From a candidate division Zixibacteria bacterium CG_4_9_14_3_um_filter_46_8 (GTDB lineage Bacteria; Zixibacteria; MSB-5A5; UM-FILTER-46-8): 55,148 nucleotides of DNA. The first letter of the stretch is position 1. Each line of letters starts with the position of its first letter. The stretch covers positions 1 through 55,148 of the forward strand of contig PFXJ01000119.1 of the NCBI GenBank assembly GCA_002791595.1. The letters run 5' to 3'. This document shows positions 11,289 to 17,889 of the stretch, piece after piece. The position numbers and the translations under genes were made by a program. The notes below the pieces were generated by a model, which saw nothing but the letters and a program-made list of their open reading frames with translations, was not told the origin of the DNA and ran no database searches.

Positions 11289-12617
11289 ATGGTAATGCGT
11301 TTGTATAACATCTTGATGATGGTAGGAATAGTCGTTGCCTCGCCGGTGTTGCTATGGCTTGGCTGGGCCAGGGGCCACAGTGTTCGTGAAAGGGTTGGAA
11401 TCTACAATGGACCGATTGAAAATTTCCTGAATGGGAAGCGTCCGATATGGTTTCATGCCGCATCGGTGGGTGAGGTGAGAGTTTTAGCCGCTTTAATACC
11501 TGCTTATTTGCATGTGTCGCATGAGAAGAAGATAATCGTTTCCACAGTAACCCGCAGTGGCAGGTTGACCGCGGAGAAAATACTTCCCAAAGAATGCCTG
11601 ACAGTGTATTCGCCCTTGGACTTGAGGGTATTTGTCAAACGTGCTTTCAAGATGATTAACCCGAGGGCCTTGGTATTAACCGAAACAGAATTTTGGCCAA
11701 ACCTTATGGAATATGCTCATCAGAGCGGGGTGCGGATGTTCTGTGTGAATGGGCGAATTTCAAAAAAATCATTTCCCCGCTATAGATTAGTAAAGCCGCT
11801 TCTGCAAAAGCTTCTTGCCTATGTGGAAGTTTTCATTATGCAAAGTGATGCTGATGCCGAGCGCCTTATACGACTTGGAGTCGCTGAAAAGAATGTCATT
11901 GTTTCCGGGAATATCAAATTCGACCTGGGCGATACGGATGAGCGATTGCGCAAAACTTTCAGCGCCTCGAAACGTCCCACATGGGTAAATGGCGAGCGGA
12001 TTCTGGTGGCGGGTTCAACCCATCGAGGGGAGGAATTGGTTATTCTCAAGGCTTTCTCCAGAATTAAGGATTTATATGACGGCGCGATCTTGATTCTTGC
12101 TCCTCGCCATCTAAACCGCATCGATGAATTGAAATTGACCGTTATGGGTTTTAGGCTGTCCCCTATTCTGAAAAGCGAATTAGATAAGCTCAATGGCAAT
12201 TCCAAACTGGAGGCAGGCAGTGTAGTGATTCTGGATACGATGGGGGAGCTTCAATATGTCTATAACTGGGGTGAAGCCGCTTTCGTGGGCGGGAGTCTGA
12301 ATAGGACCGGTGGCCATAATCCGTTGGAACCGGCGGCGTGGTCGAAACCGATAGCTTTTGGCCCCAATATGCAGAATTGTCAAGAGATATCCCAATCGCT
12401 GGTCGATTGCGGGGGCGCGCGTATCGTTCGCAACGCCGATGAGCTTTTCCAGTTTTTCAATGACATACTTTCTGATCCGGATAAGAGAGACGAGATGGGC
12501 AACCGTGCCGCACTGGTCTCCCAGAAAAACAGCGGCGTTTCGATATCCGTCGCCGAACGGTTGTTTGGCTTGATATCTCATAAGAAAGCCGAGAACCAAC
12601 CGACTGTGGCGGCTTGA
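11289..12617 (+). CDS. waaA: 3-deoxy-D-manno-octulosonic acid (Kdo) transferase
   Basis: 'IWFHAASVGEV', 'ETEFWPNL', 'VAGSTHRGEE', 'GGSL..GGHNPLEPAA' and a 442-aa length. Confidence 0.9.
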   Translation: MVMRLYNILMMVGIVVASPVLLWLGWARGHSVRERVGIYNGPIENFLNGKRPIWFHAASVGEVRVLAALIPAYLHVSHEKKIIVSTVTRSGRLTAEKILPKECLTVYSPLDLRVFVKRAFKMINPRALVLTETEFWPNLMEYAHQSGVRMFCVNGRISKKSFPRYRLVKPLLQKLLAYVEVFIMQSDADAERLIRLGVAEKNVIVSGNIKFDLGDTDERLRKTFSASKRPTWVNGERILVAGSTHRGEELVILKAFSRIKDLYDGAILILAPRHLNRIDELKLTVMGFRLSPILKSELDKLNGNSKLEAGSVVILDTMGELQYVYNWGEAAFVGGSLNRTGGHNPLEPAAWSKPIAFGPNMQNCQEISQSLVDCGGARIVRNADELFQFFNDILSDPDKRDEMGNRAALVSQKNSGVSISVAERLFGLISHKKAENQPTVAA

Positions 12618-13723
12618 ACATTCACCATCACCAGCCAGCCGATTCAAACCAGCCCTTGCCCGATTCCGATTTGCGCTCTATCATTTTAAGACCTTTATCA
12701 TATCTATACAGCGGCGCCATATATCTGCGGAATCACGGATATGATTGGGGCTATTGCGACATAACAAAACTTGCCAAACCGGTAATCTCGGTAGGCAATA
12801 TCACCGCGGGCGGCTCGGGGAAAACGCCGCTGGTGCGCTTTATTTGCGAAGAATTGCTCAAGAAGAACCTAAAGCTGGCCGTATTAACGCGCGGCTACAG
12901 GCGCAAATCAAAGGACAACATTTTCTTCGAATCTCCTCCGGCAAAACATCTCATCCCCGATGATATCGGCGATGAACCGCTGATGCTGGCTCGGCAACTC
13001 CCCGGAGTGATCTTTGGCATATCCGCCGACCGAAAGCTAATGGCGGAAAGAATCATCAGGGCTTACAATCCCGATGTTTTCATTCTTGATGACGGCTTTC
13101 AGCATCGAAAAGTTCATCGGGACATTGATATTGTTGTCCTCGATGCGGCGCGTCCGTTCAATAATGGACATTGCCTTCCCGCTGGACTACTGCGCGAACC
13201 GATAACGAGTTTATCCCGCGCGGGCATAATCATAATCAGGACTCAGAAAGGAACAACGCCCCAGGCGGGTTTGCCGGAGCGCATAAAATCTATCGCACCG
13301 AAAGCCGAAATTATCGAGGCGAGCATCGTCCCCAAAAAGCTAGAGTCGCTATCCGGCATCGATACGAAACCGATTGAGTTCTTGCGGGGAAGAAAGGTGA
13401 TCGCCTTCTGCGGGATAGGCAATCCTGATGGTTTTCGAATGATGCTTAGAGAGCTTGGCGCGGATATCCGAGGTTTCAGAGCTTTTCGGGACCATCATCG
13501 GTATTCGGAAAAAAATTTGCATGAAATTGGGAGACAATTCTCAAAAGCTGACGCGGAGATTTGTGTTACCACGATGAAGGATGGGGTTAAATTGACCAAT
13601 GATAAATTTGACTTTCCATTGTTTTTATTGGATATTGGGTATGAGATTGGTGCCGGGGACAGGGAACGGTTTTTATCTTTTGTGATTGGAGTAATAAGTG
13701 CAGATATGGCGATCATACTATAA
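12614..13723 (+). CDS. lpxK: Tetraacyldisaccharide 4'-kinase
   Basis: 'VISVGNITAGGSGKTPL', 'LTRGY', 'DEPLML' and 'ILDDGFQH'. TTG start overlaps the waaA TGA by 4 nt (TTGA). Confidence 0.9.
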   Translation: MNIHHHQPADSNQPLPDSDLRSIILRPLSYLYSGAIYLRNHGYDWGYCDITKLAKPVISVGNITAGGSGKTPLVRFICEELLKKNLKLAVLTRGYRRKSKDNIFFESPPAKHLIPDDIGDEPLMLARQLPGVIFGISADRKLMAERIIRAYNPDVFILDDGFQHRKVHRDIDIVVLDAARPFNNGHCLPAGLLREPITSLSRAGIIIIRTQKGTTPQAGLPERIKSIAPKAEIIEASIVPKKLESLSGIDTKPIEFLRGRKVIAFCGIGNPDGFRMMLRELGADIRGFRAFRDHHRYSEKNLHEIGRQFSKADAEICVTTMKDGVKLTNDKFDFPLFLLDIGYEIGAGDRERFLSFVIGVISADMAIIL

Positions 13724-13771
13724 GCTGTCCAGAAAGGCGTACGCGGAGCTATTTATCGGGAGGAGTATGAA

Positions 13772-15214
13772 ATGATAATCACGCAGACGGGGCCACAAAA
13801 CGTTGGAGACATCGCGATACACTTCGAGCATGGGAATCTGTATCTTTCTCCAGAAGAATACCAAAGAGAAAATGTGTGGAATCTGGAGCAAAAAAGACTT
13901 CTAATTGACTCAATATTTCGCGAAATGGATATTCCTAAATTTTATTTATGGAAGATTGACCAAGAAACATTGTCAGGGGGATATCCCGATGGAGAGATGA
14001 AGAAACATTACAAAGACATTCTTGAGAAAAAGCGAAGGGAAGATGATGAACCAAATCCATTTGTATATGAAGTCGTTGACGGACAGCAACGGATCAGAAC
14101 AATACTGGAATACATGGGTGTTGGGGCGAAAAGTTCCGAATACTACCGTGGAGTATGGGGGAAACAGTTCCCCGCACCTGATGATACACCATTAGCTAAG
14201 GGCAAGTGTTTTGCGCAACTTACTGCAAATCAGCAGATCAAATTCAAGGGTGGCCGCCTGACGGTAATGGTTTTGGAAAAAGCAGGAATCGATGACATTC
14301 GAGATATGTTTACACGGCTCCAAAACGGGACGCCTTTGAATGCGCAGGAAAAGCGCGATGCTATGGGGTCATCGGTAGGGCGAATAGCTCGAGATATGGC
14401 TCTTTTGCCTTTCTTCAGTAAGTCCGTAAGTTTTGGGGCAGAGCGTTCAACTCATAAGCTTGTGGCATCTCAGATGCTTCAATTGGAGCGGAAAGAAAAG
14501 ATAGTGAGCTGCACTTCCAGACAACTGGACAAACTATATGAGTTCTATAGGAAGGCACAATTTGAGAAAAGTGTTGGAGATAGAACACGAACGATCTTGA
14601 CAGTCTTGGGCAAGATATTCCCTAACAAGAACCCCCATCTTAATCAAAACTATGCCTTGAGTCTTTATTGGGCGTTATCCAGAATTACGCAATCATACAA
14701 GATCCCGGAGAACGAGTACGCGAGAATTAAGGATAATTTCGAACGATTGGACATCAACCGTCTGGAGGCAATGGGTAGGGACTTTAAAGAAGCGCCACAG
14801 GACAAGATTTATGAGGAACTGACTTTGGCAATGTCCCGCGGGAATACCGGAACTGACGGTATTTCAACTCGCCACGATATACTGTGCCAATACCTTTTCC
14901 AAGATGTTGGCCTAGAGTCCTTACCTAAACTTGACCCTCAGAGAATTTTCACACACGAGGAGAAACTAATCCTTTACCACAGGGCTAATGGATGTTGCCA
15001 ATTGTCTTTTGCCGGAAAGGTCTGCGCTCGTCAGCTAGATTTCGATGAGTCTGCTGTCGATCACATCTCTCCACATAGCAAGGGTGGTCAAACAACACTC
15101 GAGAACGGTCGCATAGCACATAAATCGTGTAACATAGCACGTGGAACGCGAGATGACTTTGATCCTGCTATTGAATGCAGTTTATTGGCCGGCAAATCGG
15201 CTTCCGAGTCCTGA
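13772..15214 (+). CDS. DUF262 (ParB/GmrSD N-terminal-like) domain fused to a C-terminal HNH endonuclease. Candidate type IV (modification-dependent) restriction/defence nuclease.
   Basis: DUF262 motifs are 'YQRENVWNLEQKRLLIDSIFREMDIPKFYLW', 'VVDGQQRIRTILEYM' and 'FTRLQNGTPLNAQEKRDA'. The C-terminal HNH is 'CCQLSF..VDHISPHSKGGQTTLENGRIAHKSCNIARG'. RBS GGGAGGAG precedes the ATG. Confidence 0.85.
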   Translation: MIITQTGPQNVGDIAIHFEHGNLYLSPEEYQRENVWNLEQKRLLIDSIFREMDIPKFYLWKIDQETLSGGYPDGEMKKHYKDILEKKRREDDEPNPFVYEVVDGQQRIRTILEYMGVGAKSSEYYRGVWGKQFPAPDDTPLAKGKCFAQLTANQQIKFKGGRLTVMVLEKAGIDDIRDMFTRLQNGTPLNAQEKRDAMGSSVGRIARDMALLPFFSKSVSFGAERSTHKLVASQMLQLERKEKIVSCTSRQLDKLYEFYRKAQFEKSVGDRTRTILTVLGKIFPNKNPHLNQNYALSLYWALSRITQSYKIPENEYARIKDNFERLDINRLEAMGRDFKEAPQDKIYEELTLAMSRGNTGTDGISTRHDILCQYLFQDVGLESLPKLDPQRIFTHEEKLILYHRANGCCQLSFAGKVCARQLDFDESAVDHISPHSKGGQTTLENGRIAHKSCNIARGTRDDFDPAIECSLLAGKSASES

Positions 15215-15266
15215 GCAATCATCTTCGTATCTTGACATTATCATTTCCCTCGGTTATAATGATGGC

Positions 15267-15431
15267 ATGAAGGATCAAAGATTCACTATTATATATACCA
15301 AAGAAAAACACTGGATAGTCGCCAGATGTGTCGAAATCGACGTGGTCTCTCAGGGAAAGACGATGAAGTCCGCCGAGAAGAATATAAAAGAAGCAATCTC
15401 CCTCTTTATAGAAAGCTTTGGATTGCCGTAA
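15267..15431 (+). CDS. hicB: HicB-family antitoxin-like protein (N-terminal HicB fold only, no DNA-binding domain)
   Basis: 'FTIIYTKEKHWIVARCVEIDVVSQGKTMKSAEKNIKEAISLFIESF' matches the HicB/UPF0150 pattern (..PG..(S/T)QG.T.eEA..n.kEAi.l..e). I chose the ATG at 15267 rather than the ORF-track start at 15141, which overlaps the upstream gene. Confidence 0.7.
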   Translation: MKDQRFTIIYTKEKHWIVARCVEIDVVSQGKTMKSAEKNIKEAISLFIESFGLP

Positions 15432-15468
15432 ACGAGGAGAACCCCGGGAAGGTCGCGGAGGCAGACTC

Positions 15469-15587
15469 GTAGGTCGGGTTCTGAGTCCCGATGGAATCGG
15501 AATGAAAAGCCCGACATGCACCAGTGTAGAATCGCATTTTGTCGGGTTTCTCACCCTGTCAGAGACGGGGTTCGGAACCCGACCTAC
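15469..15587. repeat. Palindromic (REP-like) element with nested hairpin
   Basis: Perfect 13-bp inverted repeat, GTAGGTCGGGTTC (15469-15481) and GAACCCGACCTAC (15575-15587). An inner inverted pair ..GCCCGACATGC.. / ..GCATTTTGTCGGGT.. lies between them. The ORFs across it on both strands are low-complexity artefacts. Confidence 0.6.
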
Positions 15588-15638
15588 TTCGGGTCATAGG
15601 CACATGAGATGATCGAAAAAGTCATAAGAATACGAAAG

Positions 15639-15791
15639 ATGGCCAAATATTCTTCCATCCGCGAAGACCTCGAATTTTGGCTGAGCAAAACCCCGGAAGA
15701 GCGGATAGCCACAGTGGAATTTTTAAGAAAGCAATTTGGTGGAAGTACAGCAAGACTTCAGAGAACTGCTCGAGTTATTCAACGCTCATAA
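15639..15791 (+). CDS. Small conserved protein commonly found upstream of minimal nucleotidyltransferases (putative TA partner)
   Basis: 'MAKYSSIREDLEFWLSKTPEERIATVEFLRKQFGGSTARLQRTARVIQRS'. I recognise the '..TPEERI..L....ARLQRV.RVIQR' pattern from such pairs. The start could be 15609 or 15639. Confidence 0.5.
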   Translation: MAKYSSIREDLEFWLSKTPEERIATVEFLRKQFGGSTARLQRTARVIQRS

Positions 15792-16185
15792 AGTTGAATA
15801 CCTTATAGTCGGAGCTTACGCGTTGGCGCTTCATGGCGCCCCCCGATTCACCGGCGACCTCGACATCCTTATCAAGCCGGAAGAGGGTAATGCTTTGCGG
15901 ATTATCGCGGCTCTCGATAAATTCGGTTTTTCATCATTAAATCTATCAACTACCGATCTTGAGAAACCGGATACAATCATACAACTTGGAATACCGCCTG
16001 TCCGAATCGATATCATTACATCGCTCACAGCCGTTTCCTGGGATGAAGCTTTTCGAGGGAAGGTAGAAGGACTTTTGGGAGATGTCTGCGTTTATTATCT
16101 TGGCAGAGACCAGTATGTAACTAATAAGAAGGCGATAGGGAGGAATAAGGATATGGCTGATTTGGAGGCATTAGGAGAGGATTGA
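15736..16185 (+). CDS. Minimal nucleotidyltransferase-fold protein (putative TA/defence component)
   Basis: 'DFRELLELFNAHKVEYLIVGAYALALHGAPRFTGDLDILI' matches the NTase G-x..D-x-D pattern. The only candidate starts are TTG 15736 and GTG 15739, so it overlaps the upstream small ORF by 53-56 nt in the +1 frame. Confidence 0.65.
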   Translation: MVEVQQDFRELLELFNAHKVEYLIVGAYALALHGAPRFTGDLDILIKPEEGNALRIIAALDKFGFSSLNLSTTDLEKPDTIIQLGIPPVRIDIITSLTAVSWDEAFRGKVEGLLGDVCVYYLGRDQYVTNKKAIGRNKDMADLEALGED

Positions 16186-16236
16186 TATTTATGGCCATCG
16201 GGGGGAAGCCGAAGGCAGATAAATACGTATAATTCT

Positions 16237-17889
16237 ATGACTGACAACACTACTCACTATTTCGATTTTCTGATTATCGGATCCGGCATGGCCGGATTAT
16301 CGTTGGCGCTGGAGCTTTCCGAAATCGGCACAGTGGCGGTTTTGACCAAAAAACGCGATTCGGACAGCAACACAAATTATGCCCAAGGGGGAATAGCGGC
16401 TGTTACATCCTCCAATGATTCATTCGAATCGCACATCAATGACACGCTTCGAGTAGGATGCGGCCTATCCAACCCGGAGGTGGTTGAGAAAATTGTGCGC
16501 TCGGGACCGGATAATGTCCGTTGGCTGACCAATTTGGGCGTGAATTTTGCCGCCCAAGACTCAAAGGGAAGCAACAGTGAGGATTTCGACCGCGGCAAGG
16601 AAGGTGGACATACTCACAGCCGCGTCCTACACGTGGCGGATTACACCGGACGGGAAATTGAGCACCGCCTTCTGATGGCAGTCCGCGCGCATAAAAATGT
16701 GGAGCTGTTCGAAAATCATTTGGCTATTGACCTGCTTATGGGAATACACAACGTTCCTCCAGCTACCAAGGGCAGCGACATCAGAGTAAGTTATGGCGCC
16801 TATGCGCTTGATATAGTGCAAGGGACTGTAAAGATTTTCAAGGCAAGCCGCACGATTCTTGCATCCGGCGGCGCGGGAAGGGTCTATTTGCATACTACCA
16901 ACCCTGATATCACTACCGGCGATGGAATAGCGATGGCCTACCGCGCCGGTGCGGTCATTAAAAATATGGAGTTCGTTCAATTTCATCCTACAAGTCTTTA
17001 CACTCCAGAGGGAAAGACCTTTCTGATATCCGAAACAGTTCGCGGCGAGGGCGGCAAGTTAATGACCATAAGCGGCCATCATTTCATGTCAGATTACCAT
17101 CCTGACCGTGAATTGGCGCCGCGCGATATTGTGGCCCGTGCTATCGATGCCGAGCTCAAGAAAAGCGGAGATAAATTTGTATATTTGGATGTGAGGCATC
17201 TCGGCTCGCGGTATCTGCAAAGCCGCTTTCCAAATATCTATCAGAATTGCCTTAAACACGGTATTGATATTACCACCGACCTCATTCCCGTAGTTCCGGC
17301 GGCACATTATTTCTGCGGAGGGGCGGCTATCGACGCTGAGGGCCGAACAAATATCGCGAATCTCTTCGCCTGTGGGGAAACCTCCTGTAGCGGCATGCAT
17401 GGCGCCAATCGTCTGGCTTCGAACTCCCTATTGGAAGCGCTGGCCACGGCCCGCATGGTCGCCAATAGCATAAGGAATACTTTCTCTGGAACCGAAGTTC
17501 GGACTTATCCTCAGATACGGCCATGGATTGAGGAGGGTGTTTTTGACCATCAGGAATGGGTAATGATTTCCCACGATGAAGATACCATCCGCCGCCTGAT
17601 GTCTGATTACGTAGGCATTGTTCGTTCCAACAAACGGCTTAATCGCGCCAATGAACGGATGAGTGTGTTGGCCAGGGATATCGAAGAGTTTTACCAACTA
17701 AATCCGGTGCGGGCTGATGTCATCGAATTGCGGAACCTCTCCACTATCGCCATGCTGGTTATCCGATCGGCATTGATGCGCCTGGAATCGAGGGGATTGC
17801 ATTACACAACGGACTACCCTCTGACCGACGACATTCATTGCAAACATGATACAGAAATTCGGCGAGTTGATTTCACAAAACTATGGTGA
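16237..17889 (+). CDS. nadB: L-aspartate oxidase
   Basis: FAD motif 'DFLIIGSGMAGLSLAL', plus 'NYAQGGIAA', 'HTTNPDITTGDGIAMAYRAG', 'EFVQFHPT', 'RGEGG' and 'HGANRLASNSLLEA'. Confidence 0.92.
   Translation: MTDNTTHYFDFLIIGSGMAGLSLALELSEIGTVAVLTKKRDSDSNTNYAQGGIAAVTSSNDSFESHINDTLRVGCGLSNPEVVEKIVRSGPDNVRWLTNLGVNFAAQDSKGSNSEDFDRGKEGGHTHSRVLHVADYTGREIEHRLLMAVRAHKNVELFENHLAIDLLMGIHNVPPATKGSDIRVSYGAYALDIVQGTVKIFKASRTILASGGAGRVYLHTTNPDITTGDGIAMAYRAGAVIKNMEFVQFHPTSLYTPEGKTFLISETVRGEGGKLMTISGHHFMSDYHPDRELAPRDIVARAIDAELKKSGDKFVYLDVRHLGSRYLQSRFPNIYQNCLKHGIDITTDLIPVVPAAHYFCGGAAIDAEGRTNIANLFACGETSCSGMHGANRLASNSLLEALATARMVANSIRNTFSGTEVRTYPQIRPWIEEGVFDHQEWVMISHDEDTIRRLMSDYVGIVRSNKRLNRANERMSVLARDIEEFYQLNPVRADVIELRNLSTIAMLVIRSALMRLESRGLHYTTDYPLTDDIHCKHDTEIRRVDFTKLW

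Follow-up and report, generated by a model that had tools for sequence, protein, structure and literature searches.

Three independent modules, among them a putative toxin-antitoxin pair encoded by overlapping genes, probably make up an accessory islet between lpxK and nadB in a Zixibacteria genome

Four genes, here called A to D, and a palindromic element occupy positions 13772-16185 of a 55,148-nucleotide (nt) stretch of DNA from candidate division Zixibacteria bacterium CG_4_9_14_3_um_filter_46_8 (contig PFXJ01000119.1). This stretch, hereafter the window, is one contig (C57) of a genome of 2.73 Mb in 133 contigs that is 94% complete. An earlier note on this DNA described the region as a variable defence islet and left room for the combination of genes being an unnamed system. 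In our view, the islet is probably a set of three unrelated and independent mobile gene modules (A, B and the C-D pair) that were acquired horizontally and lie side by side without cooperating. This degree of confidence refers to the explanation as a whole, that is, to the insertion, the three modules and the roles proposed for each of them. The C-D family, rather than the islet, is the part that we consider worth following up. The features discussed below are the following:

12614-13723, + strand: lpxK, left flank (Pfam LpxK, 6e-87)
13772-15214, + strand: gene A, 480 amino acids (aa), with a DUF262 domain (ParB-like NTPase sensor), a helical middle and a canonical HNH domain
15232-15260, + strand: promoter-like site, TTGACA-17-TATAAT (12/12 consensus), 6 nt before the ATG of B
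15267-15431, + strand: gene B, 54 aa, predicted remnant of a truncated HicB-type antitoxin
15469-15587, no strand: nested palindrome of 119 nt, a copy of a dispersed repeat that resembles miniature inverted-repeat transposable elements (MITEs) and repetitive extragenic palindromes (REPs), recognised by its arms and RNA fold
15609-15791, + strand: gene C, 60 aa, small helical protein, putative antitoxin
15739-15791, + strand: C/D dual-coding overlap, 53 nt (C tail ...RLQRTARVIQRS, D N-terminus MEVQQDFRELLELFNAH)
15739-16185, + strand: gene D, 148 aa (149 from the TTG at 15736), minimal nucleotidyltransferase (NTase) and putative toxin, GTG start
16237-17889, + strand: nadB, right flank (Pfam FAD_binding_2, 1.1e-93, and Succ_DH_flav_C; NadB-type flavoprotein)

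The list of open reading frames (ORFs) places all four genes on the + strand of the lpxK-nadB gap and, together with the inverted-repeat and fold analysis, agrees with the earlier note on the position and common orientation of the four ORFs and the palindrome. The identities that had been given to them also hold: a DUF262-HNH nuclease (Pfam GmrSD_N and HNH), a HicB without HicA (which adjoins a homologue of B and is missing from the window), a REP-like inverted repeat (from a family that is dispersed over at least 8 further contigs of the same genome) and a small ORF paired with an NTase gene (which overlap by 53 nt).

That the islet is inserted follows from the comparison of the lpxK-nadB junction that the earlier note had proposed. 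This comparison was made with four genomes of the same family (G001-G004), which belong to three other genera and in which LpxK is 45-48% identical to that of the window. The junction is empty in all of them: nadB follows lpxK with a spacer of ~8-60 nt, the order DUF374-waaA-lpxK-nadB-guaA is kept, and no relative of nuclease A is present. Additionally, the window nadB is 73-78% identical to the gene found directly after lpxK in these relatives. As lpxK and nadB are adjacent in all four genomes, the patch at 13772-16185 (~2.46 kb) is confirmed as an insertion of accessory genes between two housekeeping blocks, as had been supposed. The word “variable” stands only in part. It applies between genera, as the islet is absent from G001-G004, but not within the species: the islet is identical in same-species contigs from four metagenome assemblies (ERZ17912254, ERZ27293413, ERZ27293414 and SRR6240790), in all of which lpxK, A, B, D and nadB follow each other with the same spacing. 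In the samples covered, the islet is fixed in this species. The GC fraction of the islet (0.41-0.48) is slightly lower than that of the flanks (0.49-0.52), and it was not used as evidence of insertion because other parts of the window are equally low. A terminator scan found no intrinsic terminator on the + strand of the islet, and positions 13000-17000 gave no Rfam match at E<=1.

The independence of the modules is seen in the loci where their relatives occur. Among 80 loci encoding relatives of nuclease A, only 2 hold a B-like gene, in both cases on the opposite strand, and none holds a credible match to C or D (the best D-like match has an E value of 0.003, in one locus). Conversely, no relative of nuclease A is found in 80 loci that hold D, and a weak B-like match appears in one of them. 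The earlier note had reasoned that genes that never co-occur elsewhere would be a random juxtaposition and, by that same reasoning, these counts make A, B and C-D a juxtaposition. The suggestion that the combination might be an unnamed system is consequently not supported. Each of the modules is complete, or recognisably broken, by itself, and the islet is of an ordinary kind, in which mobile genes for defence and addiction have accreted at a junction between genes.

Genes C and D are strictly linked to each other. In metagenome loci, a homologue of C lies directly upstream of D in 80/80 cases. Where both ORFs are delimited (76 loci), D is read in frame +1 with respect to C, which ends either 53 or 59 nt inside D. 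The same geometry is kept in paralogues from related genomes that are only 34-42% identical. With regard to nucleotide diversity at codon positions 1/2/3, the values are 0.38/0.25/0.60 for the non-overlapping codons 1-42 of C and, in a matching pattern, 0.25/0.16/0.63 for the body of D, while in the overlap they are 0.30/0.16/0.15. All three positions are constrained there, as expected if both frames are translated and, judging from this pattern in the sequences, C is a real coding gene. The start codon of D is ATG in 77/79 family loci, and this ATG is embedded in the conserved Tyr-Gly codons of C (TAT GGA); in the window these codons read GGT GGA and D starts with GTG. A strong internal Shine-Dalgarno sequence for D, suggested by the loci of five relatives, was considered and dropped, as a GGAG-type site is present in only 9/79 loci.

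Both genes belong to large families. A profile of C retrieves 1,450 representatives (50% clustering) among 1.84 billion proteins, most of them of 60-100 aa and with the domain at the C-terminal end, and the D family comprises at least 3,426 clusters (90% identity), with nearly all members listed at 148 aa. Among related genomes, the pair is patchy and multi-copy, being present in 12 of 61 and in two copies in G002 and G040. The largest cluster of neighbouring genes covers 7/62 C-D loci, so there is no third conserved partner, and no homologue of D was found in a phage collection of 50,697 records. The pair does occur on plasmids. One of them is pGM02 of Geminocystis sp. NIES-3708 (locus L231, 2362-2935), where it lies in a type I restriction-modification (R-M) operon, between a group formed by hsdS, vapBC and a helix-turn-helix gene on one side and hsdR on the other. 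The 60-aa homologue of C on this plasmid has been annotated, apparently in error, as “toxin secretion, membrane fusion protein”. Another protein of 481 aa (P0306) contains seven tandem copies of the core motif of C (...YILSQPPADRVAAVEAF...) followed by an unrelated C-terminal region.

As for what D resembles, its invariant residues include P35, R36, T38, G39, D40, D42, D91, K130, D138 and D141. Its Pfam matches (DUF6036, NTP_transf_5, ANT(2'') and AbiEii) are all below threshold. For instance, D scores 15.6 bits against AbiEii (PF08843, cut-off 22.5), for which precomputed matches exist in a minority of the homologues, and 19.6 bits against DUF6036 (PF19502, cut-off 23.6), its best Pfam match, which a relative of D fused to C (P0367) passes with 26.1 bits. 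A plasmid relative of D that is 29% identical has been named “DUF6036 family nucleotidyltransferase” by NCBI. The profile of the D family, in turn, matches MenT1 (8AN4, E 0.0026) and TM1012, and the loop P35 R36 F37 T38 G39 D40 L41 D42 (PRFTGDLD) aligns with PRFTRDVD of MenT1; K130 and D138/D141 of D would be the equivalents of K137 and D152 in that toxin. In the AlphaFold model of D (mean pLDDT 79.5), the best predicted fold match is TM1012 (2EWR/2FCL/4HX0; E 1.9e-5, TM score 0.64-0.67), with further matches to MenT1 (0.5-0.63), LnuA (0.62) and ANT(2'')-Ia (0.60-0.62). The model of C suggests three helices with low confidence (mean pLDDT 67). C has no match in Pfam or the PDB, and the fold search with its model returned only meaningless matches (E>7).

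Among known systems, C-D resembles MenAT1 of Mycobacterium tuberculosis (Rv0078B-Rv0078A), which also combines a small upstream helical protein (MenA1, 68 aa; C, 60 aa) with a compact NTase. MenT1 shares with D the PRFTxDxD loop, including its threonine, although it is longer (196 aa versus 148 aa). In the loop of MenT1, T39 is the phospho-acceptor and D41 is catalytic (PMC11375011), and it has been shown that this threonine is auto-phosphorylated upon binding of the helical antitoxin MenA1 (PMC10435456, PMC11375011). Searching the MenAT1 paper for the term “overlap” revealed no dual-coding overlap of 53 or 59 nt (PMC10435456). C also differs from the antitoxins of the AbiE/MenAT (DUF1814) family in that it is not a COG5340/AbiEi protein. 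In the literature searched, there was no mention of DUF6036 and nothing was found on this type of toxin-antitoxin (TA)-like NTase pair with overlapping genes. An assignment of C-D to the HEPN-MNT (type VII TA) systems was also considered and rejected, as the 60 aa of C include no histidine, and hence no Rx4-6H motif, and C has no HEPN match.

From these sequence features, C-D is probably a toxin-antitoxin pair. D would nucleotidylate an RNA and C would block D, while the overlap would fix their translational coupling in such a way that D is never made without C, the basic tail of C being read from the same 53-59 nt as the N-terminus of D. The mechanism that we prefer, by analogy, is that of a MenAT1-like TA pair in which coupling would be enforced by the overlap. 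A more far-reaching proposal, which we put forward only tentatively, is that C-D may represent a very large unnamed family of NTase TA systems (at least 3,426 clusters for D and 1,450 representatives for C). In such a family, the basic tail of the antitoxin would be obligatorily dual-coded over 53-59 nt, which would fix the stoichiometry through translational coupling, +1 fusions would occasionally arise, and the antitoxin would inactivate the toxin by inducing it to auto-phosphorylate its Thr38, as in MenT1.

The second module is nuclease A, in which Pfam recognises GmrSD_N/DUF262 (PF03235) at residues 25-196 (2.8e-17; 63.9 bits, cut-off 33.2) and HNH (PF01844) at residues 417-459 (2.4e-8; 34.4 bits, cut-off 21.4). 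The motifs QRxxxW (31-36), DGQQR (103-107) and F-LRLQ-N (180-185), the HNH core (D430-H431...N445...N454) and the cysteines C409, C418, C453 and C469 of a four-Cys zinc site are invariant in 27 aligned homologues. According to published definitions (PMC12137116, PMC12065111), QRxxxW, DGQQR and FxxxN characterise the sensor NTPase of enzymes of the GmrSD type. The nearest sequence relative with a solved structure is BrxU (7P9K), with a profile match at E 0.0026 that covers residues 30-111 only. The family of A has more than 120 clusters with 50-67% identity, all of ~480 aa, in Nitrospirales, Planctomycetia, Myxococcota, Alphaproteobacteria, Zixibacteria, Syntrophomonas and other hosts, and this spread across phyla points to horizontal transfer. 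No cluster of conserved neighbours extends to more than 12 of the 80 loci of A relatives, and these 12 all belong to a distant subfamily with 30% identity, where the neighbour is an upstream partner of ~1,100 aa. The nine close homologues share no neighbour, and their contexts all differ (DUF1156/DUF499 genes in one case, helicases and resolvases in another, and ordinary genes in another). In a metagenome-assembled genome of an alphaproteobacterium (L050, 6001-7461), the homologue of A is broken into three consecutive ORFs and is likely a pseudogene.

To judge from its domains and motifs, A most likely works by itself as a modification-dependent (type IV) restriction enzyme similar to GmrSD. 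The N-terminal DUF262 ParB-type NTPase would sense modified foreign DNA and the C-terminal His-Me finger (canonical HNH) nuclease would cut it, with a single protein acting alone, since no partner is conserved across loci. The members of the GmrSD family (Eco94GmrSD, BrxU 7P9K, SspE and GrwA/TgvB) are likewise single polypeptides with DUF262, a helical middle and a His-Me nuclease, and occur in solitary form, sometimes in defence islands. By contrast, BrxU is longer than A (587 aa versus 480 aa), and the GmrSD nuclease is a DUF1524 domain, whereas that of A is a canonical HNH with a four-Cys zinc site. No experimental work on the DUF262-HNH architecture was found in the literature searched. 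When PADLOC was run on the islet, as the earlier note had advised, its best match was NsnA of the Menshen system for A (2.9e-21). This identity was rejected, as neither the NsnB ABC-type ATPase nor NsnC accompanies A: the genes that follow it (B and C-D) have no PADLOC match except one to AbiEii (0.046), and beyond them and A lie only the flanking genes nadB and lpxK.

The third module, B, has only weak Pfam matches of its own (DUF7387, 4e-4; PHD_like, 0.07). However, its homologue P0125 (locus L215), which is 78% identical and 20 residues longer (74 aa), is followed by a gene for a 77-aa HicA_toxin protein (PF07927, 9.2e-19) with an 8-nt overlap, and a frameshifted hicA follows the same antitoxin on two other contigs. 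Nucleotide homology between the window and the intact locus runs from the ATG of B to its stop codon (TAA, where the homologue has CAA) and then ends, which implies that B has lost ~20 C-terminal residues and the whole toxin gene. In terms of sequence, B would be the antitoxin left over from a broken hicB-hicA operon. No HicA remnant is present in the window or downstream of the B paralogue on contig C127 of the same genome, and elsewhere in the genome tblastn with the HicA of the homologue finds only C79:13958-14167. Among 12 members of the B family, HicB_lk_antitox (PF15919) is matched by 3 (best E 0.012), UPF0150 by 1 and DUF7387, below cut-off, by 11.

What would survive of the hicBA operon is its promoter together with codons 1-54 of the antitoxin gene and, if B is made, it would have no partner to neutralise. 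Given the consensus box 6 nt before its ATG, transcription of B may continue, perhaps into an mRNA with no leader or almost none; the homologues of B have a TTGAC(A/T)-17-TAxAxT box with a leader of 20-30 nt and a Shine-Dalgarno sequence. The type II TA system HicAB resembles B in the 78%-identical homologue encoded upstream of HicA and in the consensus promoter, and differs from it in that the toxin gene and the last ~20 residues of the antitoxin are gone from the window. Additionally, the full-length form of B (74 aa) has no recognisable DNA-binding domain, and the Pfam HicB models remain below threshold. The genome contains a second orphan copy of B (C127:8617-8772; 59 aa, 74% identical, with no hicA downstream) and one intact hicB-hicA-like pair (C79:13752-14167).

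Between B and C, 37 nt past the stop codon of the former and 21 nt before the start codon of the latter, lies the palindrome, which has outer arms of 22 nt each (15469-15490 and 15566-15587) as well as inner hairpins. The z score of its RNA fold is -4.3, and none of 200 shuffled sequences folds as well. Copies in the same genome are found at C65:7014-7130, C111:606-719, C100:13109-13226, C34:19679-19809, C108:65-183, C88:572-627, C35:5466-5519 and C66:11677-11728. The ends of the family (GTAGGTCGGGTTC...GAACCCGACCTAC) and the inner arms (AAACCCGACA / TGTCGGGTTT) are conserved, while the sequences of the two small hairpins vary from copy to copy and still pair. No Rfam family matches the repeat. 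Like REP and MITE repeats, it is ~115-125 nt long, non-coding and intergenic, has terminal inverted repeats and occurs in several copies per genome; unlike them, it has a nested design of two arms, each with its own variable hairpin, and neither a target-site duplication nor a transposase partner was identified here. A link between the 3′ end of B and the repeat, suggested by the sequence 'ATTGCCGTAAA' before the copy on C35, was discarded, as the gene on C35 is unrelated and the 14-nt match is due to chance (E 0.11).

Several observations weigh against the explanation preferred here. The invariance of the islet across the four same-species assemblies leaves recent mobility without support. 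For A, the third DUF262 motif (F180-LRLQ-N185) exceeds FxxxN by one residue, and Pfam finds HNH (PF01844) instead of DUF1524 (PF07510), the defining nuclease domain of GmrSD, so that A fails one defining feature of these enzymes while keeping the same logic. The identity of B as a HicB comes from the gene neighbourhood of its homologue and from sub-threshold profiles (best 0.012). With regard to C-D, D does not reach the curated Pfam cut-off of any NTase family and its fold is roughly as close to LnuA and ANT(2'')-Ia as it is to MenT1, no similarity can be detected between C and MenA1 or another known antitoxin, and the window copy of D may be weakly expressed given its rare GTG start. One alternative for the islet as a whole is a single new defence system of four genes, with the nuclease as an effector under the control of the HicB-fold protein and of the NTase pair. 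The genes are indeed tightly packed, co-oriented and inserted as a block, and the islet is identical in the four assemblies. Nevertheless, the co-occurrence counts largely refute this reading, which we regard as very improbable: B-like genes are found in 2/80 nuclease loci (on the opposite strand) with no credible C or D, nucleases in 0/80 C-D loci, intact relatives of B pair with HicA, and C-D is complete alone in 80/80 loci. It is also rather unlikely that A has another role, either as an effector that needs a separate modification system, like SspE, or as a selfish or homing HNH endonuclease. The HNH in place of DUF1524, the homologues beside DUF1156/DUF499 genes or beside helicases and resolvases, and the ~1,100-aa partner of the distant subfamily (12/80 loci) would agree with such roles, but the close homologues have no common neighbour, one of them lies among ordinary genes, and the complete set of NTPase and nuclease motifs is invariant.

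For C-D, D could be a small-molecule or antibiotic NTase (similar to LnuA or ANT(2'')) or a housekeeping modifier, with C as an accessory or regulatory subunit and no TA function. This alternative, which we consider unlikely, would account for the TM scores of LnuA and ANT(2'')-Ia, about as good as that of MenT1, for the sub-threshold match to Aminoglyc_resit and for the absence of the pair from the 50,697 phage records. Resistance NTases, however, are not known to depend on a partner with an overlapping gene and strict coupling. Furthermore, the PRFTxDxD loop with its threonine is that of MenT1, and the pair is patchy and multi-copy and lies among TA and R-M genes with no conserved metabolic neighbour. 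It might also be argued that C and D are a single gene, either expressed as a C-D fusion through programmed +1 frameshifting in the overlap (e.g., at AGA-CUU-C) or split as a pseudogene. The length and frame of the overlap are conserved family-wide, CUU followed by C would, we infer, let tRNA-Leu re-pair on UUC, and three natural in-frame fusions exist (P0367, of 191 aa, P0348 and P0373), joined inside the overlap, in which the first ~48 residues of C are followed by D from residue ~6. Against this, D has its own ATG in 77/79 loci with an invariant 'ME.Q.DF', the stop codon of C and its RLQR...R tail are conserved, and the diversity at third positions of D is 0.30 in the overlap versus 0.63 in its body, which indicates that the tail of C is itself translated. 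The 80/80 arrangement is not that of decay, and the junctions of the three fusions fall on different nucleotides, which is what independent indels would produce. Consequently, we find a single C-D gene quite unlikely, and we retain the reading of C-D as two genes that probably form a TA pair.

The islet shows that tight packing and co-orientation of accessory genes are not proof of a system. As for its components, DUF262-HNH proteins form a variant of GmrSD that is well conserved and moves between phyla, and C-D is an abundant, uncharacterised two-gene module that combines a deeply conserved and long dual-coding overlap with the catalytic loop of a tRNA-modifying toxin. If borne out, the proposed role of C-D would add a minimal form of 148 aa to the MenT/AbiE toxin family, and the pair would serve as a clear example from nature of how selection shapes two overlapping reading frames in bacteria.

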